64,000 bases of DNA from Alphaproteobacteria bacterium (GTDB lineage Bacteria > Pseudomonadota > Alphaproteobacteria > Rs-D84), in NCBI GenBank assembly GCA_017443235.1, contig JAFSOV010000016.1:9525-73524 (forward strand). The letters run 5' to 3'. Below, in pieces: positions 4,253 through 63,931 of the stretch (the first letter of the stretch is position 1; the number at the start of each line of letters is the position of its first letter). Position numbers and translations under genes: made by a program. The notes under the pieces were generated by a model. The model saw nothing but the letters and a program-made list of their open reading frames with translations, was not told where the DNA came from and did not search any database.

Positions 4253-5959
4253 ATGGGAAACTTTATCAAAACGCAAACGTCGTTTGCCAACGGCGAAGTA
4301 TCACCAAATTTTTTTGCGAATTCCAATATCAACGGACTTTCGCGATTGGAAAATATGGACGTGATACCCGGGGGCGGCCTGCGTCGTCGGCCCGGATTAA
4401 AAAAGATTGCCAAATTGTCGGCAAATGCGCGATTGGTTCCGTTTTCAATTTCTGAAACGGAACATTATGTGTTGGCGATAATGAATGGCCTGGTTCGCAT
4501 TTTTTCGGGTGATTCGTTTGTCCAAGATGTATTTGCGCCGTGGTCGGGTGCGGATGTGGGACTGGTCCAATACGCACAACGTTTTGGAACGATGATTTTC
4601 GTTCATCCAGATTACAGTCCCAGAATTTTGTACCGTGATAACGGTATTTTTAAGTTTATGAATTTTTCGTTCTCGTCATCCGATGGTGGCGAAAATGTCG
4701 ATATGCCTTTTATGCGTTTTGAAGATTCGAATAACATAAGTATCACAATCACTATGGTGGGCAGTACGGCGCACCTGAATACGAATCAAGATTTTTGGAC
4801 GGCACAAAATGTTGACGGCCATTTATCCCTTTTGGGAAAAACTTGGTTGATAACATCATATATTGGACCGCGCGAGGTCACCGCGGCGTGTAATGGTATT
4901 TTTACAATACCAAATTCACCAATCATCGATTGGCAAGAAGCCGTATTCAGCCCACGTCGTGGATGGCCAACCAGTATAACTTTTCACCAGAATCGGTTAG
5001 TGTTTGGTGGTTCAAAATCTTGGCCGGGTGGTGTGTGGATGTCGCATGTTGGCGAACATAAAAATTTTAATACCGGCACAGGTTTGGATGACGAAGCGAT
5101 ATGTTTCACACTGTTGTCATCACGACGTCAACATATTTGCACATTGGTCAGCAGTGACAATTTGCAAATCCTTACATCCGAAGGTGAATGGGCGGTTTCA
5201 AATAAACCATTGACCCCGGAATCAGTGAACATAAAAATGCATACCACAATCGGGTGCATCGCGGACAGATATTTGCCGCCCCAAGAAATTGACGGTTCAA
5301 CAATATTTGTGTCGAACAATAAACACGATATACGACAAATGGTTTTGGACGATTTGGGTCAAAATTACCGGGCCGATAATTTGTGTGCATTGGCGGAACA
5401 TATAATGAACAATCCAATTGATATTGCATACAATAAAACAGATAAAAAACTGTTTGTTGTTATGTCAAATGGCGAAATGGCCGTGTTAAATCGAAATACT
5501 GAATTGGGAATTTCCGGATGGGGACACTATATAACCGCGGGTGAATTCAAATCTGTTGCGGTGTCCAATGGCAATACATACGTCGTGACGGAACGCGATT
5601 CGGAATTTATGTTTGAAAGATTCGATGATTCAAAAATGATTGATGCAGACGAATATCCATACACTTCACGTGCCTGTGGATTGCCGATAATGACGTCTGG
5701 ACATAACGCGAAATATACAAGGATTAAAAAGATTGTCGCACGTGTACACAATTCGAAAACTTTATTTATAAACAATTTTCGAACCGCATTTCCAAATGAA
5801 GTTTATGTTGATGGCGCATCCGGATTTTCGGGCGATATGTCAGTAAATGTTTTGGGAACACTGCGTGATATGGTGGACAGTCCATGGGAAATATCAACCA
5901 GTGATGAATTACCATTGACCGTATTATCGATAACAATATATGGCCGATATCAAATATAA
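4253..5959 (+). CDS. tail tubular protein B (T7 gp12-like)
   Basis: The N-terminal FANGEVSPNFF..GLSRLENMDVIPGGGLRRRPGL resembles gp12 GGISQQPDILRYPDQGSRQVNGWSSETEGLQKRPPL. It follows gp11 as in T7. Confidence 0.6.
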   Translation: MGNFIKTQTSFANGEVSPNFFANSNINGLSRLENMDVIPGGGLRRRPGLKKIAKLSANARLVPFSISETEHYVLAIMNGLVRIFSGDSFVQDVFAPWSGADVGLVQYAQRFGTMIFVHPDYSPRILYRDNGIFKFMNFSFSSSDGGENVDMPFMRFEDSNNISITITMVGSTAHLNTNQDFWTAQNVDGHLSLLGKTWLITSYIGPREVTAACNGIFTIPNSPIIDWQEAVFSPRRGWPTSITFHQNRLVFGGSKSWPGGVWMSHVGEHKNFNTGTGLDDEAICFTLLSSRRQHICTLVSSDNLQILTSEGEWAVSNKPLTPESVNIKMHTTIGCIADRYLPPQEIDGSTIFVSNNKHDIRQMVLDDLGQNYRADNLCALAEHIMNNPIDIAYNKTDKKLFVVMSNGEMAVLNRNTELGISGWGHYITAGEFKSVAVSNGNTYVVTERDSEFMFERFDDSKMIDADEYPYTSRACGLPIMTSGHNAKYTRIKKIVARVHNSKTLFINNFRTAFPNEVYVDGASGFSGDMSVNVLGTLRDMVDSPWEISTSDELPLTVLSITIYGRYQI

Positions 5960-5978: not shown

Positions 5979-6326
5979 ATGGGACAAGTTATTTCAGATG
6001 TGAAAGATATTTTGAATTACCAAGAGGGCAAGAAAAAAACTGCATCGACCCGCAAAAAAATTTTAAGACAAATGGCCACGGACGAAAATACCAAACAAAA
6101 CCTTGTAAAAAAAGTCTTGGCAACCCAACGCGCAAAATATGGGGCGTCGGGGATGAAAACCCGTGGCCAAACCGAAGATGCGGTTTTGACACGGTTAAAA
6201 CAAGAAACAGAACAACCATATAATGAAAAAAAGCAATCCAATTTGAACAAATTAAAAAATACGCGTGCCAAGAAAAAGAATCTGTTATTGTCGGCATTGG
6301 AACATATGGAAAAATTGGTCGGGTAA
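5979..6326 (+). CDS. small basic protein (possible internal virion protein, gp13 position)
   Basis: A 115-aa lysine-rich protein following tubular B. Confidence 0.3.
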   Translation: MGQVISDVKDILNYQEGKKKTASTRKKILRQMATDENTKQNLVKKVLATQRAKYGASGMKTRGQTEDAVLTRLKQETEQPYNEKKQSNLNKLKNTRAKKKNLLLSALEHMEKLVG

Positions 6327-6327
6327 G

Positions 6328-6921
6328 ATGACGGAATATAACCAATTTTTGGATTCTTGGAATTCAGTATTGGGATTGGTCACGCCCGCGCATCACCATC
6401 GTATGACAAATTTTTTGACCGATGTGTTAGAAGGTGAAAATCATCGTGGTTTGTTGATGGCATTCCGGCATTCGGGAAAATCCACGATAGTCGGGATTTT
6501 TGCAACGTGCGTCCTGTTTCTGCGCCCCCAAACGCGTATTCTTATTTTGTCGGCCCAGACACACCAGGCCGCCCGAATGGTTATGCATATAAGAAACATT
6601 TTGGAAAATCATCCATGGTGCCAAGATATGATTCCAAAAAATCGTCGTGAATGGGCAGAAAATAAAATAACCATAAATCGCCCAATTGGCATTCGCGAAC
6701 CATCGGTACTGTGCCAAGGAATATACGGAAATATAACCGGTATGCGTGCAGATTTGATAATTTGTGATGATGTCGAGGTTCCAAATACATGCAACACCGC
6801 ACGAAAACGTGCGGCGTTGCGTGAAAGATTGCGTGAATTGGATTTCGTGCTGTCCCCAAATGGTACAATGATTTATATCGGGACACCGCACACATTGGAT
6901 ACCATATATCGTACGGTTTAG
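6328..6921 (+). CDS. terminase large subunit, N-terminal ATPase fragment (split gene)
   Basis: Walker A FRHSGKST and Walker B ADLIICDDVE. The fragment ends LDTIYRTV* after motif III, and no nuclease domain follows in this ORF. Confidence 0.7.
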   Translation: MTEYNQFLDSWNSVLGLVTPAHHHRMTNFLTDVLEGENHRGLLMAFRHSGKSTIVGIFATCVLFLRPQTRILILSAQTHQAARMVMHIRNILENHPWCQDMIPKNRREWAENKITINRPIGIREPSVLCQGIYGNITGMRADLIICDDVEVPNTCNTARKRAALRERLRELDFVLSPNGTMIYIGTPHTLDTIYRTV

Positions 6922-7583
6922 TCCGCAGAATCGGTATGTGGTAAAGAACTGGTAATCTTGTGCAATCGGCGCAGTAATTTTTGTCCTTCGTCACCGAACA
7001 TCGGCAGGTATGTTTCATAATCCAACATATCAACCTGAAGCTGTGCACGTGCGCGTTCGTTTATCGGTTTTGCCAAGATTTCGTTTGCATTGTCCCAAAG
7101 TTTATATGCCCTCTGGGTGCGGATAATCATATCAAATTTCTTCAATGCTTCGGGATTGTTATTCAATATGTTCTTGATGGAATTTGCCCAATCAGGACCA
7201 AATTTTTTAACAACCGGGTTTTGCATAAATTCATTCAATTTATCTTGGTCCGGTTCAAAATCATCAATTGCATTTATAAGTTCTGCCATATCCGCAAACG
7301 GCACATCGGTCGCATTTGCGCCTTCGTTCATCATACCACCATAGGGCAATAATTCGCGTGCAATTGAATTCATGGGCGTTTTGCCATCACGCAAATTTTT
7401 TATGTGTTGCGCCAACATTTTGCCGGTGGGTAAATCGGCCATTTCATTCAATACTTCATCGGTGGCCTCGTCAACAAAGACACGATTCACCGCGCCCCAC
7501 CCGCCGACAATAACGTGCGCCTGGCGATACAGATTCAGTAATTTTTGTGCGATTACGCTTGCTTTGGCTTTCATCTCGTTCAA
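6918..7583 (-). CDS. hypothetical protein (221 aa) inside the terminase-interrupting insert
   Basis: A clean ORF ending 4 bp inside the terminase-N stop. I recognise no family for it. Confidence 0.45.
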   Translation of the reverse strand: MNEMKAKASVIAQKLLNLYRQAHVIVGGWGAVNRVFVDEATDEVLNEMADLPTGKMLAQHIKNLRDGKTPMNSIARELLPYGGMMNEGANATDVPFADMAELINAIDDFEPDQDKLNEFMQNPVVKKFGPDWANSIKNILNNNPEALKKFDMIIRTQRAYKLWDNANEILAKPINERARAQLQVDMLDYETYLPMFGDEGQKLLRRLHKITSSLPHTDSAD

Positions 7584-7601
7584 TCCCTCCGTTGGATGGT
7601 G

Positions 7602-8612
7602 TTATTCTGTGGTGACCATAATAACCTTGTGCATAGTTTGCGCAGAAATTTTTTCTTCGGGCGACACTATTTGGCCATAAATTTTGCCTTTGGAATCTTG
7701 ACGTACTATGGCGATTTGTGCGACCAACGTTTTATCATCACTCAGCGTTTTGAAATCGGTATCAACAAACACCGCCAAATCACCAACCGCGGGCACCGAT
7801 TTAACATCTGCAAAAACATAGGAACGTGCCGGAATAAACCCGCCCAGACGTTTAGAATTTGGAATAAGGGCATATACGCCGCGGCGGCCTTCAAGATTTG
7901 CCGGCGCCGCAATCATTGTTGAATCAGATTTTTTGAATGCAATTCCTTTGCCTTCGGGTTTGCCGAAGACCGGAACCAATTTTTTGCGCGCATTATCATA
8001 CAATTTGGCACCATACAAATGTCCCTGCATATCGCCCAAATCGGCAGCGGAATCCCCAGGAACCAGAACGGCCCGTACGCGTTCTTTGACCTTGTTCATT
8101 TGTTTGGTCAGTTCGCCAGATTTATATAAATCTGCGATTTTATCGAACATACTGTCCACAGAATGCGCAAATGAGCGCGCCAATGGTTCAATTTCATTTT
8201 TATATACTTCGCGTTGGCCGACCTCTATCTTGTGATACACAGACAGTGTCATTCCCGCATCTTTGGCGGCCTGGGCAATGGTTTTGCCGGCCTGTTGACG
8301 TATTTTGCGCAGACCACTGCCGAATACTTTCAATCCGCTGTCTTCATTATCGTTCATACGGCGTTTGATTTCATTTTGCCATTTTGCGGCGACTTCGTCT
8401 GTGTCCTTGATGAATATATCGGACAATTTGCACCCCAATATATTGCATATATTTAACAATTGTTTTTGGTTCAGGCGGCGCACACCTTTTTCAATCTTGG
8501 AAACCGCCGACAACGACAATCCCGACCGGCGTGCCAGTTCTGTCATCTTCATACCCGCGGCCAGACGAATGTTGCGAATGTTATTTGGAAAAATGATTTC
8601 TTCTTGGGCCAT
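7602..8612 (-). CDS. XRE-family repressor with two N-terminal HTH domains and a C-terminal LexA/CI (S24)-like beta domain
   Basis: Two HTH_XRE-like segments: IRNIRLAAGMKMTELARRSGLSLSAVSKIEKG and LRKIRQQAGKTIAQAAKDAGMTLSVYHKIEVG. The C-terminal VGDLAVFV...KTLVAQIAIV resembles the LexA C-domain, but I do not see a GDSM catalytic Ser motif. Confidence 0.6.
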   Translation of the reverse strand: MAQEEIIFPNNIRNIRLAAGMKMTELARRSGLSLSAVSKIEKGVRRLNQKQLLNICNILGCKLSDIFIKDTDEVAAKWQNEIKRRMNDNEDSGLKVFGSGLRKIRQQAGKTIAQAAKDAGMTLSVYHKIEVGQREVYKNEIEPLARSFAHSVDSMFDKIADLYKSGELTKQMNKVKERVRAVLVPGDSAADLGDMQGHLYGAKLYDNARKKLVPVFGKPEGKGIAFKKSDSTMIAAPANLEGRRGVYALIPNSKRLGGFIPARSYVFADVKSVPAVGDLAVFVDTDFKTLSDDKTLVAQIAIVRQDSKGKIYGQIVSPEEKISAQTMHKVIMVTTE

Positions 8613-8683
8613 ATAAAACTCCTTGGGATAAATCTTGACAAAATCATAGTCAATTTTAGAAAACTTGGCAAGGAAAAAGTTTA

Positions 8684-8725
8684 ATGGTGGTTAGTGTTAG
8701 TGATTAGTGTAAGTGGTTAGTAACA
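8684..8725. repeat. TTAGTGG heptad repeat block (inverted partial copy of the 62521-62625 element)
   Basis: ggtggttagtgttagtgattagtgtaagtggttagtaacactaa. Its reverse complement contains actaaccacttacactaa, which is identical to 62608-62625. Confidence 0.6.
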
Positions 8726-10267
8726 CTAATTCATATCGTCGGGTATTTCGTTCAGGTCGATAGGCATTGCATCATTGGTTTGCGGTACGGGTGCGCCTTC
8801 TTCGGCAAATTGGATGCCACCACGGTTCGCCATATCGTTCAGGTTATCAAACAAACTGAATTCCGGCAAGAACGCCAATTTAATGGTATCTGTTTTTCCG
8901 TGGCGGTTTTTGCCGATAATGACATCGGCTTTGCCTTTGGATTTTTCCATACGATTTTGCCACGAATCAACAGACCTTTCATTCGGGGCACCCGAAAGAC
9001 GGTGCGACGGGTCGCGATTCGCCAAATAATATTCTTCACGATACGTGAACATAACAATGTCCGCGTCTTGTTCAATAGAACCGGATTCACGCAAATCCGA
9101 CAATTGCGGGCGTTTATCATCACGCATTTCAACACTGCGCGATAACTGCGACAGGGCGATAACCGGAACCTCAAATTCCTTGGCCAACATTTTAAGGGCG
9201 CGCGTTATTTCGGACAGTTCTTGGACACGATTATCTTTGTTTTTCCCGCCCGGCGAAGTCAATAATTGCAGGTAATCAATCACAATCAGCGCAATTCCGT
9301 TATATTTGCGCGCCAATCTCCGCACGCGCGTGCGAATCATTGGCACCGACATCCCCGGTGTATCGTCAATGAACAATGGAATACGACTTATCGCATCGGA
9401 AAATTGCGTCATTTTAAGAAAGTCTTCATCGGTCAATGAACCTTCGCGCATCGCACTGGACGGGATGCGTGATTGCGAAGACAAAACACGTGCCGCCAAT
9501 TCGGATGCACCCATTTCCAGGCTGAAAAACGCGACCGCGCCGGTATACTGCGGGTTGGCGCGGCCCGAAAATATCGCGTTTGCCGCATTGAATGCAATAT
9601 TCATGGCCAATGTCGTTTTACCCATACCCGGACGCCCCGCGATAATCAACAGGTTTGATTTGTGCATACCACTTATTGCGGAATCTAAATCGGTCAATCC
9701 CGTTGTCAATCCGGACAATTTGCCGTCCGCCTTGTATGCGATTTCGGCCTCAACCAGTGCGCTTTTTAACGCGTTGGCAATCGGTGTGACATCACGCCCG
9801 GAATCACCACTTGTCGCCATATTGAACAGCATTTGTTCCGCATTTTCGATTTGGGTCGTCACCGGTTTGTCCAAATCTTCGACAAATGCGTCATCGGTTA
9901 TATTTTGTCCAATTTGAATCAGTTCGCGGCGCATCGCATTTTCATGCACGATTCGTCCATATTGTTCAACGTTCACAACCGTTGCGCCCGCGCCCGCCAA
10001 TTGTGTCAAATAATCGATTCCGCCCACAGATTCCAATGTTCCCTGTTGGTCCAGATAGTTTTTAACGGTAATTATGTCGAACGGTATTCCGGCCGCAAAT
10101 TGGCGCATCGCCAAACGATATATTTCTTGGTGGGCGGGATGGGAAAAATCTTCGGCTTTCAAAAATTCGGAAATTTTTTCCAGTGCGCGGTTGTTGATAA
10201 GCACCGCCGCCAAGACGGCCTGTTCGGCCTCCATATTCGTTGGTAAAGTTTTGGGAGTAAAGTCCAT
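8726..10267 (-). CDS. dnaB: DnaB-family replicative DNA helicase
   Basis: A full DnaB N-domain plus the RecA-like domain with Walker A GRPGMGKTT and the SLEMGASELAARVL and IDYLQLL motifs. At 513-515 aa there is no room for an intein. Confidence 0.85.
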   Translation of the reverse strand: MDFTPKTLPTNMEAEQAVLAAVLINNRALEKISEFLKAEDFSHPAHQEIYRLAMRQFAAGIPFDIITVKNYLDQQGTLESVGGIDYLTQLAGAGATVVNVEQYGRIVHENAMRRELIQIGQNITDDAFVEDLDKPVTTQIENAEQMLFNMATSGDSGRDVTPIANALKSALVEAEIAYKADGKLSGLTTGLTDLDSAISGMHKSNLLIIAGRPGMGKTTLAMNIAFNAANAIFSGRANPQYTGAVAFFSLEMGASELAARVLSSQSRIPSSAMREGSLTDEDFLKMTQFSDAISRIPLFIDDTPGMSVPMIRTRVRRLARKYNGIALIVIDYLQLLTSPGGKNKDNRVQELSEITRALKMLAKEFEVPVIALSQLSRSVEMRDDKRPQLSDLRESGSIEQDADIVMFTYREEYYLANRDPSHRLSGAPNERSVDSWQNRMEKSKGKADVIIGKNRHGKTDTIKLAFLPEFSLFDNLNDMANRGGIQFAEEGAPVPQTNDAMPIDLNEIPDDMN

Positions 10268-11111
10268 GTCCAATATACTATATGAAAAAAATGTTTTTTC
10301 AACGCCTTTTTTATGCGGGTATGCCGAATTAAAAATTCCAATACTGGATTCAAGCGGAAATTCGGCATGGCCGGCGGTTTTTCCGCCTGAAAAAATTGCC
10401 CAAATCAGGGATACGGTCGGTGAAAGGCATTTTTCGGCGCAAATGATGCTGGATTATGTGTCGCCTGAAAAAATCCGCCTGGATCCCGGGACAATACATT
10501 TTTATGAAGACGAATTTGACCCACACACCGCCCGCATCGGGGACGATTTAATGTCGGGTGCGGCAATTTATTGGGACCCATCGGGTGGCCGCCGCGGCGC
10601 CGATAACAGTGTTTGTGCATTGATTTATCGTGACGATAAAAATCGCCGCGTCTTTATACACGATATTATCTATGTTGTTGTGCCAGATGAAATAGATTAT
10701 CCATTGGCATATCAATGTGACCGGATTATCGAATTTGTGCGTCACAGCAATATGCACCAAATTGCATTGGAAACAAATGGTCTTGGGGCGGCATTACCCG
10801 AAATTATGCGTGACATCATAAAGCGTAATGGTGGCGGAATAAATCTGCGCCCAATAACAAATTCGCGGCGCAAAGAAGACCGTATATTGGACGCATTGGA
10901 ACCATTAATGTCAACGGGTCGATTGTTCGCCCATCGGCGAATCACCCAAACCCCATTTATTACAGAAATGTTGGCATGGTCGCCATTAGGCGGATGCGAA
11001 CACGATGACGGTTTGGATGCGGTTGCCGGTGCAATTACGTGTCCGCCGGTACCTGTGCGCCCAACCTTTGGTGGTGCGCGGTATATGGCAAACACAGATT
11101 TCAAAATTTAA
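10266..11111 (+). CDS. terminase large subunit, C-terminal nuclease fragment (split gene)
   Basis: It starts exactly at the dnaB start on the other strand. The AIYWDPSGGRRGADNSVCAL...HDIIYVV...ETNGLG...DDGLDA pattern is the RNaseH-like nuclease domain of large terminases. Confidence 0.65.
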   Translation: MSNILYEKNVFSTPFLCGYAELKIPILDSSGNSAWPAVFPPEKIAQIRDTVGERHFSAQMMLDYVSPEKIRLDPGTIHFYEDEFDPHTARIGDDLMSGAAIYWDPSGGRRGADNSVCALIYRDDKNRRVFIHDIIYVVVPDEIDYPLAYQCDRIIEFVRHSNMHQIALETNGLGAALPEIMRDIIKRNGGGINLRPITNSRRKEDRILDALEPLMSTGRLFAHRRITQTPFITEMLAWSPLGGCEHDDGLDAVAGAITCPPVPVRPTFGGARYMANTDFKI

Positions 11112-21374: not shown

Positions 21375-21520
21375 CGAAATTTTGTTAGCCTGCGCGAAAA
21401 AGCGCAGGCTTAAAAAATTTCAGTGTCTCGCCGTAGCATTGTTCGGAATGCAACCGAATATTTCCGTATTTATCGGCGAAGGCGGACAGAATTCTAGAGA
21501 GTTTATTTCGTTAGCAAAAA

Positions 21521-21547: not shown

Positions 21548-21709
21548 GAAAATTGAGTGTCTCGCCGTTCCGCTTACGCTATCGCCCCGGCAAGATTTGG
21601 CATAATTGGCGCTTGCGCCACGAAGCCTTGGCGAAGTGGCGGAGGCGGACCAAATATATAATGTGCTATAAAATTTGACATCTATCTTATTTTATCCTAT
21701 ACTGCCCGT

Positions 21710-44948: not shown

Positions 44949-46597
44949 TGCTGCATACATCGGATTTTGATTTTGAATTGCCAACGGAATTGATAGCATC
45001 GCATCCATTGGAACGGCGCGATGCTTCGCGTATGTTGGTGGTCGTGCCAAATTCCCCTCTGACCAGAGGGGTGGTGGGTGAAACCCACCGGGGTGTCGCA
45101 CTAGAAGATAAACACATCCGGGATTTTTTGGATTACATTCAACCCGGCGATGTTGTTGTGTTTAATAATTCGCGTGTTATACCGGCGCGCTTTGATGCGG
45201 ATGGTCACGAAATCACGTTGCACACCGCGGTCGATGATAAAAATTGGTGGGGGCTGTGCAAGAAATTTAATAAAATACATATCGGCGACACATTGACTAT
45301 GTGTGACGGTACGACAATAACCGTTATGGATAAAGACGATGAAAGTGGCCTGTTGCTGCGCTTTAATTGTGACAATGTTTTTGATGTGTTGGGGCGGGTT
45401 GGAAAAATGCCGTTGCCACCATATATGAAACGCGAAGCCGAAATCGCGGACAGCGCACGTTATCAAACCGTCTATGCCGACCCGTTGGGGTCAATGGCGG
45501 CGCCAACCGCGGGTTTGCACTTTACCGATGAATTGATGCGCGAAATAGAATCGCGTGGCGCGAAAATTGTAAAGATAACTTTACATGTTGGTGCGGGCAC
45601 ATGGATGCCGGTCAAGACGGAAAATTTAAATGAACATAAAATGCACAGTGAATGGTGCTGTATCACGCCGGCCCAGGCGGAAATTATAAACAACGCCACG
45701 CGTGTAATCGCGGTCGGCACAACAACACTTCGCACCTTGGAATCCGCCGCCAAAGTTCCCCTCCCCGGAGGGGTGGCGGGTAGCACCCGCCGGGGAGGGG
45801 GTAAAAAGGATATTTGTATGAATTTGCCTGCAAACCACAAATTAAAATCTCGTGCGCGCGAATTACGCAAGGCCGGCAGTTTGCCCGAGGCATTATTGTG
45901 GAATGAAATAAAGGGCAAGCGCATATGCGGATTAGATTTTGATAGACAACATGTAATTGGTAACTATATCGTAGATTTCTTTTGTTCAGCCACAGGTTTC
46001 ATTATTGAAATTGATGATAAAACACACGAACTGAAAGGCGAATACGATGAGAAACGTGACGCATATCTTAAAAGTCTTGGGTTAACGATTATGCATATCC
46101 CGGCCTCGGATGTTTTGCAAAATCCTGCGGCGGTGGCCCATTGGATAGAAAATACTGTATCAAATACCCCCACCCCGTCGCCGTTCGGCGCCACCCCTCC
46201 GCCGGAGGGGAACTTGCCACATATGGAAAAAAATAAATTTTCAATCGCCTGTGGGTCATTGCAGACCGGGATGTGTGCGGAATTTGCAGAAACCAAAGTT
46301 CCCCTCCCCGGAGGGGTGGCGGGTGAAACCCGCCGGGGTGGGGCGCGTGTTGCACCGATTTGCCAAACCACCGATATTTTTATCACACCGGGATATAAAT
46401 TCCGTGCGGTTGATGTGTTGTTGACCAATTTTCACTTGCCAAAAAGTACACTGTTTATGTTGGTGTCGGCGTTTTCGGGGCTTAGTGAAATGAAGGCGGC
46501 GTACCGGCACGCCATCGCCGAAAAGTATCGTTTTTTCAGTTATGGCGATTGCTGTTTATTATTTAGAAAGGATTGCGAAAATGTCGTTAAAATTTAA
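44948..46597 (+). CDS. queA: S-adenosylmethionine:tRNA ribosyltransferase-isomerase QueA carrying in-frame insertions (549 aa against about 350)
   Basis: DFDFELP...VVFNNSRVIPAR...MAAPTAGLHFT...VIAVGTTTLRTLESAA | about 196 inserted aa | ICQTTDIFITPGYKFRAVDVLLTNFHLPKSTLFMLVSAF...KYRFFSYGD. Confidence 0.8.
   Translation: MLHTSDFDFELPTELIASHPLERRDASRMLVVVPNSPLTRGVVGETHRGVALEDKHIRDFLDYIQPGDVVVFNNSRVIPARFDADGHEITLHTAVDDKNWWGLCKKFNKIHIGDTLTMCDGTTITVMDKDDESGLLLRFNCDNVFDVLGRVGKMPLPPYMKREAEIADSARYQTVYADPLGSMAAPTAGLHFTDELMREIESRGAKIVKITLHVGAGTWMPVKTENLNEHKMHSEWCCITPAQAEIINNATRVIAVGTTTLRTLESAAKVPLPGGVAGSTRRGGGKKDICMNLPANHKLKSRARELRKAGSLPEALLWNEIKGKRICGLDFDRQHVIGNYIVDFFCSATGFIIEIDDKTHELKGEYDEKRDAYLKSLGLTIMHIPASDVLQNPAAVAHWIENTVSNTPTPSPFGATPPPEGNLPHMEKNKFSIACGSLQTGMCAEFAETKVPLPGGVAGETRRGGARVAPICQTTDIFITPGYKFRAVDVLLTNFHLPKSTLFMLVSAFSGLSEMKAAYRHAIAEKYRFFSYGDCCLLFRKDCENVVKI
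45054..45100. repeat. GC-rich palindromic element, diverged copy (in-frame in the queA N-terminal region)
   Basis: CCCCTCTGACCAGAGGGG TGGTGGGTGAAACCCACC GGGGTGTCGC encodes an extra SPLTRGVVGETHRGVA. Confidence 0.6.
45757..46342 (+). mobile_element. in-frame insertion in queA: a nested DUF559/Vsr-like endonuclease domain flanked by GC-rich palindromic elements
   Basis: Palindromic elements at 45757-45801 and 46300-46342 (CCCCTCCCCGGAGGGG TGGCGGGT-GAA/AGC-ACCCGCC GGGG...), with a partial copy at 46194-46210. An internal RBS AAAAAGGA and an ATG at 45818 start the DUF559-like sequence ARELRKAGSLPEALLWNEIKGKRICGLDFDRQHVIGNYIVDFFCSATGFIIEIDDKTHE...LGLTIMHIPASDV. Confidence 0.65.
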
Positions 46598-58878: not shown

Positions 58879-59223
58879 ATGCGCCAAGGTAAAGTAAAAT
58901 GGTATAACGGCAAAAAATGTTTCGGCTTTATTGCGCCGGACACGCCAAATGAAGACGGCAATACAGATGATGTTTTTGTTCATTCCAGTTCTTTGAAAAA
59001 TGCAGATTTGCGTTTCCTGAACGAAGGCGATATTGTTGAATTTGAAGAAGAAGTTCGTAATGGCAAATTGTCTGTGACAACAATTAAATTGATTCAACGC
59101 GATGAAGAATCTGCAAAAAGATTCCAAGAACGTCGCGCCGAACGCAGACGCGCCCGCGAAGAAAGAAAAAGTCGCGAAGAACACAAAGAAAAAAAATCCG
59201 GCTTTGCGTTTTGGAAAAAATAA
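58879..59223 (+). CDS. cold-shock domain protein with basic C-terminal tail
   Basis: GKVKWYNGKKCFGFI...DVFVHSSSL CSD motifs and an Arg/Glu/Lys-rich tail. Confidence 0.8.
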   Translation: MRQGKVKWYNGKKCFGFIAPDTPNEDGNTDDVFVHSSSLKNADLRFLNEGDIVEFEEEVRNGKLSVTTIKLIQRDEESAKRFQERRAERRRAREERKSREEHKEKKSGFAFWKK

Positions 59224-59230
59224 AAATTTT

Positions 59231-59258
59231 AATCCCGCCTATGCGGGATTTTTTTACG
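59231..59258 (+). terminator. rho-independent terminator aatcccgcctatgcgggattttttt
   Basis: A perfect hairpin plus T7. Confidence 0.65.
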
Positions 59259-59280
59259 GACATCCCCGCCCACCAATAAC

Positions 59281-59370
59281 ACCCGTCGCGGCCGCGGCAT
59301 ATCTCGCTGTGGCGCAAGCGTAAGCGGATGCCGGGACGGACCGACCACTAACACTAACCACTATTTATTT
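59281..59370. repeat. dispersed element copy: CCCGTCGCGGCCGCGGCA...GCCGGGACGG hairpin plus a CCACTAACACTAACCACTATTT heptad tail
   Basis: It shares its 5' 19 nt, GCCGGGACGGAC and the CACTAACCACTATTT tail with 62627-62680. Confidence 0.6.
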
Positions 59371-59422
59371 GATTTTATAACATCTTGGTGTAAAATATGC
59401 TTATACAACAAAGGAGTTTTAT

Positions 59423-59968
59423 ATGTGGACGGCAATTGGTATTGTGGCGGTTTTGGTTTTGTATATTATCGCGGTTTATAATGGTCTTGTTTCCCGCCGG
59501 AACCAGGCGCGCGAGGCATGGGCAACAATCGACACGCAATTAAAACGGCGGTATGATTTGATACCGAATTTGGTGGAAACGGTACGTGGCGCGGCGGCAC
59601 ATGAAAAAGATACTTTATCTGCGGTAATTGCGGCCCGCAACAGCGCGATGTCCACAAATCCATTGGATGGTGCGTCGGCCGAACGTGGATTGACCGGTGC
59701 ATTGAATAAGTTGTTCGCGTTGGGGGAAGCATACCCGACACTGCGTGCAAATGAAAATTTCTTGGAATTGCAACGCGAATTGACGGATACAGAAACCAAG
59801 ATTCAATCGGCACGTCAATTTTATAATACGGTGGTAATGGCACTGAATACCCAAATTCAACAGTTCCCATCAAACATTGTTGCGCGTATGTTTGGTATCA
59901 CGCCGGAAAAACTATTTGAAATGGATGAAACCGAACGTCACGCCCCAAAGGTCAGTTTTAATAAATAA
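59423..59968 (+). CDS. lemA: LemA family protein
   Basis: An N-terminal TM segment plus a conserved LemA core (YNGLVSRRNQAREAWATIDTQLKRRYDLIPNLV). Confidence 0.8.
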   Translation: MWTAIGIVAVLVLYIIAVYNGLVSRRNQAREAWATIDTQLKRRYDLIPNLVETVRGAAAHEKDTLSAVIAARNSAMSTNPLDGASAERGLTGALNKLFALGEAYPTLRANENFLELQRELTDTETKIQSARQFYNTVVMALNTQIQQFPSNIVARMFGITPEKLFEMDETERHAPKVSFNK

Positions 59969-59991
59969 CTTTTTATTAAGCAAAAATAAAA

Positions 59992-60017
59992 ACACCCGCA
60001 ATTGCGGATGTTTTTTT
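59992..60017. terminator. bidirectional terminator acacccgcaattgcggatgttttttt
   Basis: A hairpin with a T-run. It lies between convergent genes. Confidence 0.6.
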
Positions 60018-60033
60018 ATCGTAACATCTTGGA

Positions 60034-60423
60034 TTAAAATTCGGGACGTTCGCGCATATCACGGCGCATCGCACGTTTCACCGCGCGGAATTCTTGTTCG
60101 GTCACGCATCCATTTGCATCAGCGTCCGCAACCGCCAATGCTTCCTGCATTTTTGGACATTTAACAGACGTCGTATCCAAACACCCATTCACAAATACCG
60201 AATGCATATGCGGCATTTTTGGACCGTGTTTGTGACATGGGCACACAAAAAAGAATGCGACCAAGAATCCCAATATAAACATTCCGCCCAAATAGAACGC
60301 CTTTTTCATTGGGGTGCATTTGCAACCGCAATGCATTTCATGCAGTTCTGGTGCCGGCGCGACGGCGGGTTTTACGACCCGTTTTGTCGTGGTGCGTTTA
60401 GTTGTTTTTGTTGTCTTTGGCAT
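60034..60423 (-). CDS. Cys/His-rich membrane protein with C-terminal EF-hand-like loop
   Basis: AAAGGAAGGA RBS. It has a TM helix, HCGCKC and CPCHKHGPKMPHMH motifs, and a DADANGCVTEQEF motif that fits the EF-hand loop consensus. Confidence 0.4.
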   Translation of the reverse strand: MPKTTKTTKRTTTKRVVKPAVAPAPELHEMHCGCKCTPMKKAFYLGGMFILGFLVAFFFVCPCHKHGPKMPHMHSVFVNGCLDTTSVKCPKMQEALAVADADANGCVTEQEFRAVKRAMRRDMRERPEF

Positions 60424-60488
60424 ATTTCCTTCCTTTGGTTTTGACGAATTCATTCTATAAAAATTAAATTTTAATGTCCAGAATTTTT

Positions 60489-60510
60489 TTGAAAAATCAA
60501 ACGCCCCAAA
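60489..60510 (-). terminator. terminator hairpin aacgccccgtttggggcgtt downstream of rnj
   Basis: A perfect hairpin with a T-rich tract on the minus strand. Confidence 0.5.
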
Positions 60511-60521
60511 CGGGGCGTTAA

Positions 60522-62354
60522 CTATTTTTGAACGAAATGCACACTGTATTGTGGCTTCTTATCCGCCCCCAGTGATGCCCGCACAACCTTGTTCGCGGCG
60601 GCCTGAACCGCCCGGGCCAGGTTATCTTGTGATTTCCTTTCGGCCTTGGACAATGCGTCAATTGCCCGTGTTATTTCAATCTGGATTTGACGTTTCATAA
60701 ACCCGGTTGTGTCGGATTCGAATATACCGGCACTGGAAACCTCAGGCGTGCCCTTTAGAAATCCGCGCTTATCAACCGGCAAAGTCACGAATATCGCGCC
60801 GTTCGAAGCAATTTTCTTGCGGTTTTTATAGACTTGGTCATTGGCACTGCGCTCGGTTTCGCCCTCCATAACAACGAATCCGGTTTCTATTGTTTCGCAA
60901 ACATATGGTTCTGCGCCGTCCGCCAACGCGACCATTTCGCCGTTGCGAACCAACATCATATGTTTCGCGCCGCCACGTTCCATTGCCATTTTCCCGTTCA
61001 GCATTTCATTGATATAATCGCCATGCATCGGGATTGAAACCTGGGGATGAACCATATCATAGAACCGTTCGAATTCTGGGCGTCCGGCATGGCCACTGGC
61101 GTGGACGTGGTCGGTATCGTAAATCGTGTGTGTGCGAATTCCCATCCGTGCCAATTTGTTATACAGGAACGATACATCCTGTTCGCGGCCCGGAATAATA
61201 ATAGAACTGAACACCACCGTATCGGTCGGCATAAGTTTCATTTCCTTTACCTGGCCACGGCACAGACGTGTCAGCATTGCAAACTTTTCACCCTGGGACC
61301 CGGTCAAGAATATCGCCTGTTTTTCGGCCGGCAAATCTTTGATTTCCGAAAATTGATACACATCGTCTTCGTTCAGGTATTTGAATTCGATTCCAATTTC
61401 GCGGAATTCGGGCAGGCCGACATATGGGACGGGACTTGGGTTGCTGCGTTCTTTGATTGCGGCAACGCGGCCCGCGGCATGTGCGGCATCGGCAAACATT
61501 TTCATCCGGGCCAGGCTTCGCGAATAACCGGTGACAATAACACGCCCCGGGGCATTCCGCATAATTTCGGTCAATGTGTCGCGAACCTGAATCTCGGTCG
61601 TTTGAACGGTTTGTCGCGCAGACGAAGTAGAATCGCACACGCACGCCAACAATTTCGGGTCGGCCCCAATTTCACGCAAACGCGCATAGTCGGTTCCCGG
61701 CTCAATCGGGTTGTCATCGTTGAACGTCCAATCGCCGGTATGCAGAATTTTCCCGGCACCGGTTTTGATAATCAACATTTGCGCCTCGGGCACAGAATGG
61801 CTAACGTGGAAAGTTTCAATTGTAAAAGGTTTCAAATCCAACGTTGCGCCGGCGGCATCAAATTCCACAATGTCGCGCTTTGGGTCAAATTCCAATTCAA
61901 TTCCGCGGAACGTGCGGCGCAGAATTTCCGCCGGGAATCGCGTGCAGTAAATTGGTTTCTTGAACTTTGGCCAAATGTACTTCAATGCACCAATATGGTC
62001 TTCGTGGCCGTGGGTCACAACAAATGCAACCACGTCTTTCTTGCGTTTTTCAAGCCAAGTTGTGTCGCAATATTGCACGTCGCCGGCACCGATTTCTTCT
62101 TCCAGAAATCCCATACCGCAATCGATGACCAAGAATTTACCCTTATATTTATACAGGTACATATTTTGCCCGACGTGTTCCAATCCGCCCAGCGCCATAA
62201 AATAAACCTTGTCATCGTTTTCGTCTGATTCCGGGTTAGTGTGTTTTTTTGAATCATTCGCCCGGTCGGCGGAAACATGAACCGTCAAATCTTCGTCCGC
62301 GGTATCAATATCTTCGACCACTTCTGGTTCAATATGTTTATGTAATTTAACCAT
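60522..62354 (-). CDS. rnj: ribonuclease J (beta-CASP metallo-beta-lactamase RNase)
   Basis: VVTHGHEDHIGAL motif and beta-CASP motifs, with an N-terminal acidic extension. Confidence 0.85.
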   Translation of the reverse strand: MVKLHKHIEPEVVEDIDTADEDLTVHVSADRANDSKKHTNPESDENDDKVYFMALGGLEHVGQNMYLYKYKGKFLVIDCGMGFLEEEIGAGDVQYCDTTWLEKRKKDVVAFVVTHGHEDHIGALKYIWPKFKKPIYCTRFPAEILRRTFRGIELEFDPKRDIVEFDAAGATLDLKPFTIETFHVSHSVPEAQMLIIKTGAGKILHTGDWTFNDDNPIEPGTDYARLREIGADPKLLACVCDSTSSARQTVQTTEIQVRDTLTEIMRNAPGRVIVTGYSRSLARMKMFADAAHAAGRVAAIKERSNPSPVPYVGLPEFREIGIEFKYLNEDDVYQFSEIKDLPAEKQAIFLTGSQGEKFAMLTRLCRGQVKEMKLMPTDTVVFSSIIIPGREQDVSFLYNKLARMGIRTHTIYDTDHVHASGHAGRPEFERFYDMVHPQVSIPMHGDYINEMLNGKMAMERGGAKHMMLVRNGEMVALADGAEPYVCETIETGFVVMEGETERSANDQVYKNRKKIASNGAIFVTLPVDKRGFLKGTPEVSSAGIFESDTTGFMKRQIQIEITRAIDALSKAERKSQDNLARAVQAAANKVVRASLGADKKPQYSVHFVQK

Positions 62355-62520
62355 TTAATAAAATCCTTTATTTATAGTTTAACATTTCCGCAATCACGCG
62401 AATTCATTACCAATAGAGCAGGCGCTTTATTTGCAGTGAATCTGTGATTGCGGGGCTGTGCGGTGCTATATCAACCGCACCACGCGACAAATAATACACG
62501 GTTTTTATCAAAAACACAAG

Positions 62521-62680
62521 GAAAATAGTGATTAGTGGATAGTGTTAGTGGCTAGTGATTTCTGGAATAAGTTCATAATTACAAACTAATTCTAAAACCA
62601 ACTAACCACTAACCACTTACACTAAAACCCGTCGCGGCCGCGGCACCAATGGTGCCGGGACGGACTAACCACTATTTCTG
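62521..62680. repeat. dispersed element, full copy: TTAGTGG heptad palindrome plus CCCGTCGCGGCCGCGGCACCAATGGTGCCGGGACGG hairpin plus a CTAACCACTATTT tail
   Basis: The left arm GTGATTAGTGGATAGTGTTAGTGGCTAGTGATT and the right arm AACCAACTAACCACTAACCACTTACACTAA are inverted heptad arrays. A GC hairpin follows. The element abuts the ackA stop. Confidence 0.65.
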
Positions 62681-63931
62681 CTTTTCGTTCATTTTGGCAA
62701 ACGAATATTGCATTTTCAAATGGTTGGCATCGTATGTTTTGTTCATAATGCCAATTGTGTCTTCCACAATAACAATTTCTTCGTTTGTTGGAATCATAAA
62801 GATTTTTACGCGGCTGTCGGGCGCGGAAATTTCGCATTCGCCGGCATCCAAACGCGCCAGTGCCTTGTCGTTCTTGGCCGGGTCAATTTTGATGCCCAAT
62901 TCTTCCAATCCTTCACAATATTTTGCACGCAGGTAATTATCGTTTTCACCAACGCCCGCGGTAAAGACCAACGCGTCAACATGTCCCAGTTCTGCCATAA
63001 ACGCACCGATATATTTTTTGACATTATGAACTTCGATTTCCAACGCCAATTTACAGTCCGGATTTGTTTCGCGGTTGCTTTCGACATCGCGGCGGTCGGC
63101 AAAGCATTTTGTAATCCCCATCAAACCGGAATCTTTGTTCATATGTTTGGTCATTTGTTCCGGGGTCAGTTTCAATTTCTCCATAACATACAGCAACGCG
63201 CCCGCATCAACGTCACCTGGCCGTGTGCCCATAACCAAACCCGCGGTCGGTGTCATCCCCAGTGTTGTATCAACCGCAATACCGTTTTTAATTGCAACGC
63301 CCGATGCGCCCGAACCAATATGCATAGTAATCAGGTTGCATTTGTCCGCCGGCTTGCCCAGCATTGCCGCCGCGCGTTTAGAAACGTACAGGTGGCTGGT
63401 CCCGTGGAAACCATAGCGTCGCACCCCAAGGTTTTTATACCATGCCTCGGGTATTGCATATCTGTATGAACTTTCCGGCATAGTTTGCAGGAACGCGGTA
63501 TCAAACACGGCGACCTGGGTCGCATTTGGCAACATTTGGCGCGCACTTTCGATTCCCATCAGTGACGCCGGAATATGCAGCGGCATCAAATCGCGCCAGT
63601 TTTGAATTTCACGCATAACTTCGTCGGTAATTTCAACGGAAGACGCAAATTTAGAACCGCCCATAACCACGCGGTGTCCAACACCGCGAATTTCGTTCAT
63701 ATCAACCGATGCATCGCGCAACATGCCCATAACAACACCCAATGCATCGTTATGATTTTTCATAGGTACTTCTTTTTTTTGTTTTGTCCCATCGGGATAT
63801 TTTTGTGTGATAAAAGAATCTGGCGAACCAATTTTTTCGACATTACCGCCGACAACTTGTTTTTTAGAATCCGCATCAAAGATTTGATATTTCAAACTGG
63901 ACGAACCACAGTTCAAGGCCATAATATACAT
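62672..63931 (-). CDS. ackA: acetate kinase
   Basis: MALNCGSSSLKYQIFD, ...HLGNG-like and ...VFTAGVGEN motifs. A C-terminal extension of about 25 aa runs into the repeat element. Confidence 0.85.
   Translation of the reverse strand: MYIMALNCGSSSLKYQIFDADSKKQVVGGNVEKIGSPDSFITQKYPDGTKQKKEVPMKNHNDALGVVMGMLRDASVDMNEIRGVGHRVVMGGSKFASSVEITDEVMREIQNWRDLMPLHIPASLMGIESARQMLPNATQVAVFDTAFLQTMPESSYRYAIPEAWYKNLGVRRYGFHGTSHLYVSKRAAAMLGKPADKCNLITMHIGSGASGVAIKNGIAVDTTLGMTPTAGLVMGTRPGDVDAGALLYVMEKLKLTPEQMTKHMNKDSGLMGITKCFADRRDVESNRETNPDCKLALEIEVHNVKKYIGAFMAELGHVDALVFTAGVGENDNYLRAKYCEGLEELGIKIDPAKNDKALARLDAGECEISAPDSRVKIFMIPTNEEIVIVEDTIGIMNKTYDANHLKMQYSFAKMNEKQK

Follow-up and report, generated by a model that had tools for sequence, protein, structure and literature searches.

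A putative extragenic mosaic repeat family on a heptanucleotide microsatellite scaffold with GC-rich hairpin cassettes in uncultured gut Alphaproteobacteria

Near position 62.5 kb of the 64-kb stretch of DNA analyzed here (the window), a composite element of about 150 nt lies between the genes ackA and rnj. Read along the minus strand, it is made up of a head of heptads, a GC-rich hairpin cassette (H1), a left heptad array, an AT-rich core (S) and a right array, followed by TTTTCC and the rnj promoter region (Table 1). A second copy, at 59.3 kb between csp and lemA, carries a cassette with a longer interior (H1L) between heptads, and its plus strand continues after H1L with ACCGACCACTAACACTAACCACTA. 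The third, at 8.7 kb, contains heptads only and is located between the dnaB stop codon and a double-HTH gene, within a split T7-like terminase; contigs from three independent assemblies terminate within this array. All copies that we examined are intergenic, and coding overlap is limited to stop codons. At 62.5 kb, where the initial annotation had placed an overlap with the C-terminal extension of ackA, the overlap consists of the stop codon TAG (62672-62674), which is the TAG of the first head heptad, and extends no further into the gene. The dnaB stop codon (8726-8728) is in the same way the TAG of the inverted unit in the 8.7-kb copy. The large terminase gene of this T7-like prophage or prophage remnant is itself split over about 6265 to 11111: the N-terminal ATPase part lies at 6265-6921 and the T7 RNaseH-like nuclease part ends at 11111, both on the plus strand, with a 218/221-aa open reading frame, a 336-aa double-HTH protein and DnaB encoded on the opposite strand within the split.

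Table 1. Modules of the repeat copies and of probable related cassettes, with positions in the window where the module occurs there
Feature	Position	Strand	Remark
Head heptads AAATAGTGGTTAGT	62664..62677	minus (ackA/rnj sense)	TTAGT at unit end abuts hairpin
H1 cassette CCGTCCCGGCACCATTGGTGCCGCGGCCGCGACGGG, GC-rich imperfect hairpin with NotI site	62628..62663	minus	
Left heptad array TTTTAGTG TAAGTGG TTAGTGG TTAGTTGG	62596..62627	minus	holds 18-mer common with 8.7-kb copy
S core, AT-rich degenerate palindrome TTCTGGAATAAG ... CTAATTCTAAAA, 37 nt	62559..62595	no strand	
Right array, five heptads, inverted (CACTA) on sense strand	62525..62558	minus	
H1L cassette, outer stem as in H1, interior 30-31 nt	59282..59339	minus	
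Heptads flanking H1L, on plus strand ACCGACCACTAACACTAACCACTATTT	59340..59366	minus	adjoin native lemA promoter
Degenerate heptad tail on other side of H1L, on minus strand TGTTATTGGTGGGCGGGGATGTCCGT	59257..59281	minus	adjoins csp terminator
Heptad-only copy, five or six TAGTG units, then inverted unit GTTAGTAACACTAA	8684..8728	plus	
Probable related cassette cAGTG + GTCTCGCCG...GGCGGAC, imperfect hairpin	21420..21487	plus	directly 3' of terminator
Probable related cassette gAGTG + GTCTCGCCG...GGCGGAC	21555..21650	plus	directly 3' of terminator
H2 cassette TCCCACTTCGCACGCCGTGCTTCGTGGGACAAGG			same TTAGT junction rule
H3 cassette TCCGTCTGCGCTATCGCTCCGTCGCGACAAGG			same TTAGT junction rule

Most of what the initial annotation had described at these sites was borne out. 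With up to two mismatches allowed, the heptad pattern TTAGTGNTTAGTG gives 14 matches in the window against 2.6 expected, a number reached in none of 100 shuffles, and a density scan over the 64 kb places heptad clusters only at 8684-8727, at 59340-59366 and at 62525-62558 / 62596-62627 / 62664-62677, which are exactly the three sites originally named and are not expected by chance. By Tandem Repeats Finder, the period is 7 at 62525-62557 and 62596-62625 and 6/13 at 8687-8721 and 59344-59363, some of the array units being 6 nt long. The GC-rich hairpin noted in the 62-kb and 59-kb copies, with differing loops, is real as well: the 18-mer CCCGTCGCGGCCGCGGCA is found exactly at 59282 and 62628 (0.03 expected), both hairpins end in TGCCGGGACGG, and the interior measures 7 nt in H1 and 31 nt in H1L. 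Similarly, the 18-mer said to be identical in the 8.7-kb and 62-kb copies (TTAGTGTAAGTGGTTAGT) is found without a mismatch at 8704-8721 (+) and 62608-62625 (-), for an expectation of 0, which speaks against a chance match, and the 8.7-kb copy does lie in the terminase insert. What did not survive was the idea of heptads and hairpin fused into one unit. The two are separable: a second H1L copy (and third hairpin) just past the window end, at 3468-3525 of contig L001 between DUF378 and rpsU, differs by 1 mismatch and has no heptads after it. The hairpins at 21420-21487 and 21555-21650 are, judging by sequence, probably further relatives; the interior of the latter is 81% complementary to that of H1L, and modules like them follow TTAGTG in the relative L127 and hold the position of H1 in L001. 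Another GC-rich double-hairpin repeat of the window, "family A" (CCAAAGTTCCCCTCCCCGGAGGGGTGGCGGGT..ACCCGCCGGGG), has three copies within 1.3 kb at 45-46 kb (45048-45098, 45750-45800 and 46293-46343); its copies are without TTAGT flanks, and we set it aside as unrelated. TTAGT occurs 21 times and ACTAA 23 times in the 64 kb, against about 56 per strand by a rough uniform estimate, and a large share of these occurrences falls inside the repeat elements; L129, a relative without the family, has 1 and 3 occurrences, respectively, in 22 kb.

The copies are not unique to the three window sites, since further ones are present in related genomes, and by these comparisons the 62.5-kb element is one copy of an extragenic mosaic repeat family found in a few uncultured gut Alphaproteobacteria species. 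The family is assembled from three building blocks, namely heptad arrays, an AT-rich palindromic S core between inverted arrays, and at least four types of GC-rich hairpin cassette, which are always in one orientation and directly 3' of TTAGT. The H1 core is identical at 34 to 36 of 36 positions at 10 loci in 5 or more species. At all 11 independent loci, the orientation of H1/H1L relative to the heptads is constant and the 3' flank resembles TGTTAGT; the 5' flank is an exact TTAGT at 7 of the 11 and has 1-2 changes at the others, with TCGGT, CCTAT, ATTAT and TTAAT as the H1 variants. H1 is present as a single copy at 11/11 loci, so that inverted doublets of the REPIN type are not the predominant unit. 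Other cassettes can be strung together, as in the L142 mosaic, where five consecutive cassettes with GTTAGT joints are preceded by five heptads. Better-kept S copies (ATCTGGAATAA..TTATTCCAGAT) are found at three or more independent loci; with intact flanks, S sits between inverted heptad arrays, which form terminal inverted repeats around a short non-coding core (<~300 nt in all), the L132 rpsU copy being without the right array. The S copy of L226 folds as DNA with z = -4.46. Heptad arrays at related loci reach 5 or more units, and near-identical paralogous copies stand at unrelated loci in several species. In terms of density, we counted three H1/H1L copies and three heptad loci in about 74 kb of the window genome, and three loci in 22 kb of L131.

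The strongest evidence on the nature of the family comes from orthologous sites. We compared the rnj neighborhoods of the relatives L127, L129, L131, L132 and L253-L256, whose DNA identity to the window species is about 90% for L127, about 84% for L129 and about 83% for L131 and L132, with L253-L256 more distant. Between L131 and L132, which are 98% identical, the number of heptads differs at three loci (2 vs 5, 4 vs 3 and 5 vs 4), and the left array of the window's 62.5-kb copy, with its four TAGTG-type heptads, has one unit fewer in L132. The ackA-rnj site holds the composite element in the window, L131 and L132 and a plain terminator (aaacggcgcg..gcgccgttt) in L127 and L129; the element stands in the place of that stem-loop, and the terminator of L127 and L129 is followed by the same promoter, cttgt(a/g)-N17-tattat, as in the element-bearing relatives. 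Between csp and lemA, the terminator of L127 and L129 leads straight to the TTGATT..TAAAAT promoter and the stretch corresponding to 59257-59366 is absent, while in the window about 110 nt of degenerate heptads, H1L and heptads separate the terminator T-run from that promoter. The rpsU-DUF378 site is empty in L129 (aaataccta|acaaaaaacgcc), holds H1L in L001, five heptads, a long S and four inverted heptads in L131, and four heptads and a short S with no right array in L132. At the 3' end of an ABC-transporter gene, between the flanks gtgattat and tgTTAGTGgTTAGTG, H1 occupies the site in L131 (with 2 heptads) and L132 (with 5), and a different module of about 100 nt is found in L001. The filled and empty rpsU-DUF378 sites are compatible with a TA(A) duplication, but since TA is also part of the element ends, such a duplication cannot be told apart here, and this comparison yielded no unambiguous target-site duplication. 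The element is located after a gene end or terminator and before the native promoter that serves the following gene.

Among the three readings originally offered (a mobile element, a structured RNA, or iterated sites for a regulator), the mobile element is the best supported, given the filled, empty and replaced sites, the variation in unit number and the paralogous copies. We therefore favor, with a probability of roughly 60%, the view that these are extragenic mosaic repeats on a heptamer microsatellite with hairpin cassettes, selfish DNA of the REP/BIME/MITE kind; the element behaves like selfish intergenic DNA and not like a gene or a regulator binding site. Its scaffold would be a (TTAGTGG)n heptanucleotide microsatellite, and slipped-strand mispairing, which has been proposed for other heptamer microsatellites (PMC4692102), best explains in our analysis how heptads are gained and lost. 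The GC-rich cassettes (H1, H1L, H2, H3 and others) would be accommodated inside the arrays in their fixed orientation, directly 3' of TTAGT, and elements would spread and be exchanged at the DNA level, either through an enzyme analogous to RAYTs and IS200 transposases that acts site-specifically on the hairpin with its TTAGT, or through ectopic gene conversion via the homologous heptad flanks. Elements would then survive in the narrow gap that separates a promoter from the end or terminator of the gene before it. With a TAG in every unit and a period of 7 bases, all three frames are closed within three units and insertion at a gene end would be tolerated; such a stop-codon filter may explain why copies are found flush against gene ends. 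Some copies have probably been put to use, for instance the ackA-rnj element at its terminator site. As for the mobilizer, a RAYT or IS200 gene was sought without success: a motif search for RAYT-like HUH/Y proteins in about 300 kb of lineage DNA had no match, which is weak negative evidence, Y1_Tnp (PF01797) is in no gene table of the window or of the relatives' loci, which cover the genome only in part, and no parent insertion sequence with the element's termini was present in the lineage DNA examined.

Could the elements instead be cis-acting RNA structures kept by selection, as terminators or as 3'-end stabilizers against exonucleases? Their repetition would then reflect recruitment, whether convergent or by duplication, in place of selfish spread. 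The fold of the 62.5-kb copy counts in favor of this explanation. As RNA, the whole element reaches -70.1 kcal/mol compared with -39.4 for shuffles (z = -8.07), and as DNA its fold has z = -6.83. In the predicted structure, both the head and the left array are paired to the right array, which makes the element one long branched hairpin with H1 as a side branch and a U-rich tract (UUUUCC) after it; the composite hairpin is followed by TTTTCCTTGTGTTTTT and H1, on the sense strand, by TTTTAG (UUUUAG in the RNA). Most copies are at gene 3' ends, next to terminators, and REP elements have terminator and stabilizer roles. Because the element occupies the ancestral terminator site, such a role is plausible for ackA, and the stable hairpin with its U-tract suggests that the ackA-rnj element now probably ends or stabilizes the ackA transcript. 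The element is also 93% identical between the window and L131, a higher value than for the conserved rnj leader next to it (87%) or for the genome background as aligned (83%), and differs between L131 and L132 by one 7-nt indel; this 93% fits constraint or recent exchange as well as it fits selfish spread. However, most copies adjoin an intact conventional terminator and would thus be redundant as terminators, copies can face either way with respect to the flanking genes, and some are outside the transcript, downstream of a terminator. A terminator scan called neither H1 nor the composite hairpin. For a structured RNA, as initially suggested, the covariance check that had been proposed came out negative on the hairpin: the H1 stem is 97% paired over ten copies, with 0 compensatory changes and three copies with uncompensated breaks, and we accordingly dropped H1 as a conserved RNA fold. 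A known RNA family was dropped as well, with no Rfam match over the whole window at the gathering threshold and no relevant one within 59150-62750 up to E = 5. For the family as a whole, we consider selection for RNA structure unlikely, although it fares best among the alternatives.

Two further observations concern the same neighborhood. It had been proposed that the element created the C-terminal extension of ackA. The protein has 419 residues vs 415, its four additional residues being due to a TAA>GAA change at the former stop; the TAG that now ends the gene lies in TAGTGGTTA, which is also present in L127 without the element, and we rejected an element-made extension for this reason. On the other side, the 5' leader of rnj (62355-62440, minus strand; RNase J starts at 62354) is conserved in its own right. 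A long stem, CCCCGCAATCAC ... GTGATTGCGG, encloses the conserved loop ACTGCAAATAAAG ... TATTGGTAAT; the leader is shared by 8 relatives, the most distant having an RNase J identity of 82%, with compensatory changes in 7 of 20 predicted pairs, and matches no Rfam family. Judged from these alignments, it is a candidate autoregulatory leader.

A more specific version of selfish spread is that the heptad arrays act as landing pads, where a site-specific enzyme, such as a single-strand HUH/RAYT-like nuclease, reads TTAGT at the foot of a DNA hairpin and inserts, excises or swaps diverse cassettes. Such a system would resemble, on a small and non-coding scale, the capture of attC cassettes by integrons or the mobilization of REPs, with the microsatellite as a reiterated target. 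Both the landing-pad scheme and this analogy are speculative, and we hold either to be improbable in this specific form.

The third of the original readings, that the heptad arrays are iterated protein-binding sites with one dimer per 7-bp unit (operators, centromere-like sites or nucleoid-organizing sites), has a precedent in the ribbon-helix-helix protein omega of pSM19035, which binds contiguous WATCACW heptads in direct and inverted orientation; its parS sites and operators consist of 7-10 contiguous 7-bp repeats of mixed orientation, and 4 or more contiguous units are needed (PMC9499535). The window arrays likewise have at least 4 contiguous 7-bp units, direct or inverted, the commonest unit, AACCACT, is one position off WATCACW, and an (ATTAGTG)n array is equivalent to the omega heptad AATCACT (PMC9499535), which occurs twice in the right array of the 62.5-kb copy and a third time in the 8.7-kb copy. 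Each of the three copies in the window ends within about 5-15 nt of a predicted -35 hexamer, and the one at 8.7 kb lies ahead of a regulator gene in a prophage-like cassette. Nevertheless, WATCACW as such is not matched, since most units read AACCACT, AGCCACT or ATCCACT and only 2 of the 5 in the right array AATCACT. The neighboring promoters are native and function in relatives without arrays, many members lie in 3' UTRs, between a stop codon and a terminator and not at promoters, and the arrays are present or absent and variable in length between strains. In the gene tables around the copies, small open reading frames apart, no ParA or ribbon-helix-helix Pfam family appears and no cognate gene was seen nearby, and the embedded hairpin cassettes would stay unexplained. 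The omega sites differ, moreover, in that the present arrays are chromosomal, at many loci and often in 3' UTRs, polymorphic, and with no cognate protein seen. Protein binding may apply to some arrays, but it does not fit a polymorphic, chromosomal family rich in 3'-UTR copies, and as an account of the family we regard it as quite improbable. Two related ideas were also rejected: that of an element-borne promoter, with (CCACTAA)n before the -35, as the same promoters are found in element-free relatives and many copies are not near promoters, and that of DnaA boxes, CtrA boxes or CcrM sites, to which the likenesses are poor by eye.

Returning to selfish mosaic repeats as the preferred reading, the family can be classified as combining known kinds, a REP/BIME/NIME-like mosaic on an STRR-like heptamer microsatellite, and its closest known analogues are such mosaics and the heptamer repeats of cyanobacteria or Xanthomonas. 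REP/BIME elements of enterobacteria and REPINs of Pseudomonas are mobilized by RAYT transposases that recognize a motif plus a hairpin (PMC3116915). Like these, the present elements are short imperfect palindromes rich in GC, whose 5' foot carries a short conserved motif; they are strictly extragenic, most of them at gene 3' ends near terminators, and they form strain-variable mosaics that may serve as terminators or stabilizers. They differ in their foot motif (TTAGT, not GTAG or GTGG), in forming single cassettes of fixed orientation inside a heptad microsatellite instead of inverted doublets, in having several unrelated hairpin types on one foot motif, and in that about 300 kb of lineage DNA revealed no RAYT gene. 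Neisserial intergenic mosaic elements (RS units with dRS3 repeats between them) and Rhizobium RIME are built from hairpin units on a short linker. The likeness lies in different short hairpin units on one conserved linker, in intergenic position and in strain-variable module content; here, however, long tandem arrays are formed by the linker itself, a unit of 5-7 nt, the sequences are unrelated, and the lineage is a different one. Heptanucleotide microsatellites are represented by STRR of Calothrix and Nostoc, GGGAATC of Xanthomonas and GTGATTA of Helicobacter pylori, the last being the same repeat as ATTAGTG, and in Xanthomonas and Nostoc they vary between close relatives and form inverted pairs (PMC4692102). 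They have in common with our arrays the head-to-tail 7-nt units, the intergenic location, the length variation between close relatives and the occasional inverted pairs able to form stem-loops, but they are not reported with hairpin cassettes at a fixed unit position, and the G-quadruplex potential discussed there does not apply to TTAGTGG. Finally, the elements resemble MITEs in being non-coding and shorter than 300 nt, in having a core enclosed by inverted termini, and in occurring in several copies, with filled as well as empty sites and a strong single-strand fold, whereas the termini here are heptad arrays of variable length and not fixed inverted repeats, with no clear target-site duplication and no parent insertion sequence found.

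As far as the searches reach, the family appears to be limited to a single genus of uncultured Alphaproteobacteria from gut or rumen, and to a few species within it. No member was detected in about 22 kb each of L129 and L253-L256. An ackA protein identical to that of the window is encoded on 20 metagenome contigs, of which several stem from studies of the ruminant gut, and RNase J homologues of 82-96% identity are found in Alphaproteobacteria MAGs. A search of metagenome contigs for CCGTCCCGGC-N6-36-TGCCGCGGCCGC gave at least 120 stretches; among the matches listed, 8 have a G+C content below 0.52, and 6 of these 8 are real family members. The 18-mer CCCGTCGCGGCCGCGGCA had at least 120 matches in genome contigs, which we take as chance because they come mostly from GC-rich taxa; none of the few checked carries the rest of the hairpin. 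TTAGT plus the start of H1 matched 12 times in IMG/VR, in no case with the rest of H1, and BLAST of the element against GenBank phages had no match. Just past the window end, a tRNA 3' end and its upstream terminator aaaaaccgacacaaggtcggttttgatttttggtggggccacaggga are partly duplicated (L001 ~5990-6470, L131 ~4620-4860); the copies, which bracket 200-400 nt, look in sequence like the scar of a small integrated element.

TAGTG heptads as such are more widespread. Four consecutive NNTAGTG units occur in at least 120 IMG/VR contigs, with a GC content of 0.26 to 0.71 among the matches listed. Arrays of 7 or more TAGTG heptads are present in 49 IMG/VR contigs compared with 21 and 20 for two control pentamers, and an inverted partner array lies within 300 nt in 14 of the 49, compared with 3/21 and 0/20 for the controls. 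As the controls also yield arrays, heptad arrays and palindromes are a general phenomenon in which TAGTG is only moderately enriched (about 2.3-fold). Inverted (R/N)NTAGTG arrays with spacers of 24-126 nt are found between structural genes of phage contigs with GC 0.43-0.69 (L277-L414, e.g., L283 608-731, L344 3882-4130 and L362 3217-3360), and for 62 of 186 IMG/VR arrays, an open frame of at least 100 codons that lies upstream is directly closed by the array, a count without a proper control. The TAGTG heptad palindromes of many phage contigs, whose GC content differs widely, may represent a widespread insulator module that combines a stop in all three frames with a hairpin. That there is no family at all, but an ordinary microsatellite beside unrelated GC hairpins, could appeal to the frequency of heptamer microsatellites (arrays of 7 or more units with arbitrary pentamers are in 20-21 IMG/VR contigs each), but eleven independent loci share hairpin, orientation and the TTAGT / TGTTAGT junctions and the other cassettes obey the same junction rule, so that this explanation, a very improbable one, is in effect already refuted by that rule.

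Established views of gene regulation or of mobile DNA would be left unchanged by these findings. On the practical side, if our reading is true, the repeats would break metagenome assemblies, as illustrated by the three contigs that end in one array, heptad lengths would serve as strain-resolving markers, and operon annotation would be affected, since the repeats can replace native terminators. For the uncultured gut and rumen alphaproteobacterial lineage, a repeat family would be added that joins a hypervariable heptamer microsatellite and REP-like cassettes by a strict rule, 3' of TTAGT and in one orientation, and this junction rule would point to a sequence- and structure-specific mechanism that can be searched for.
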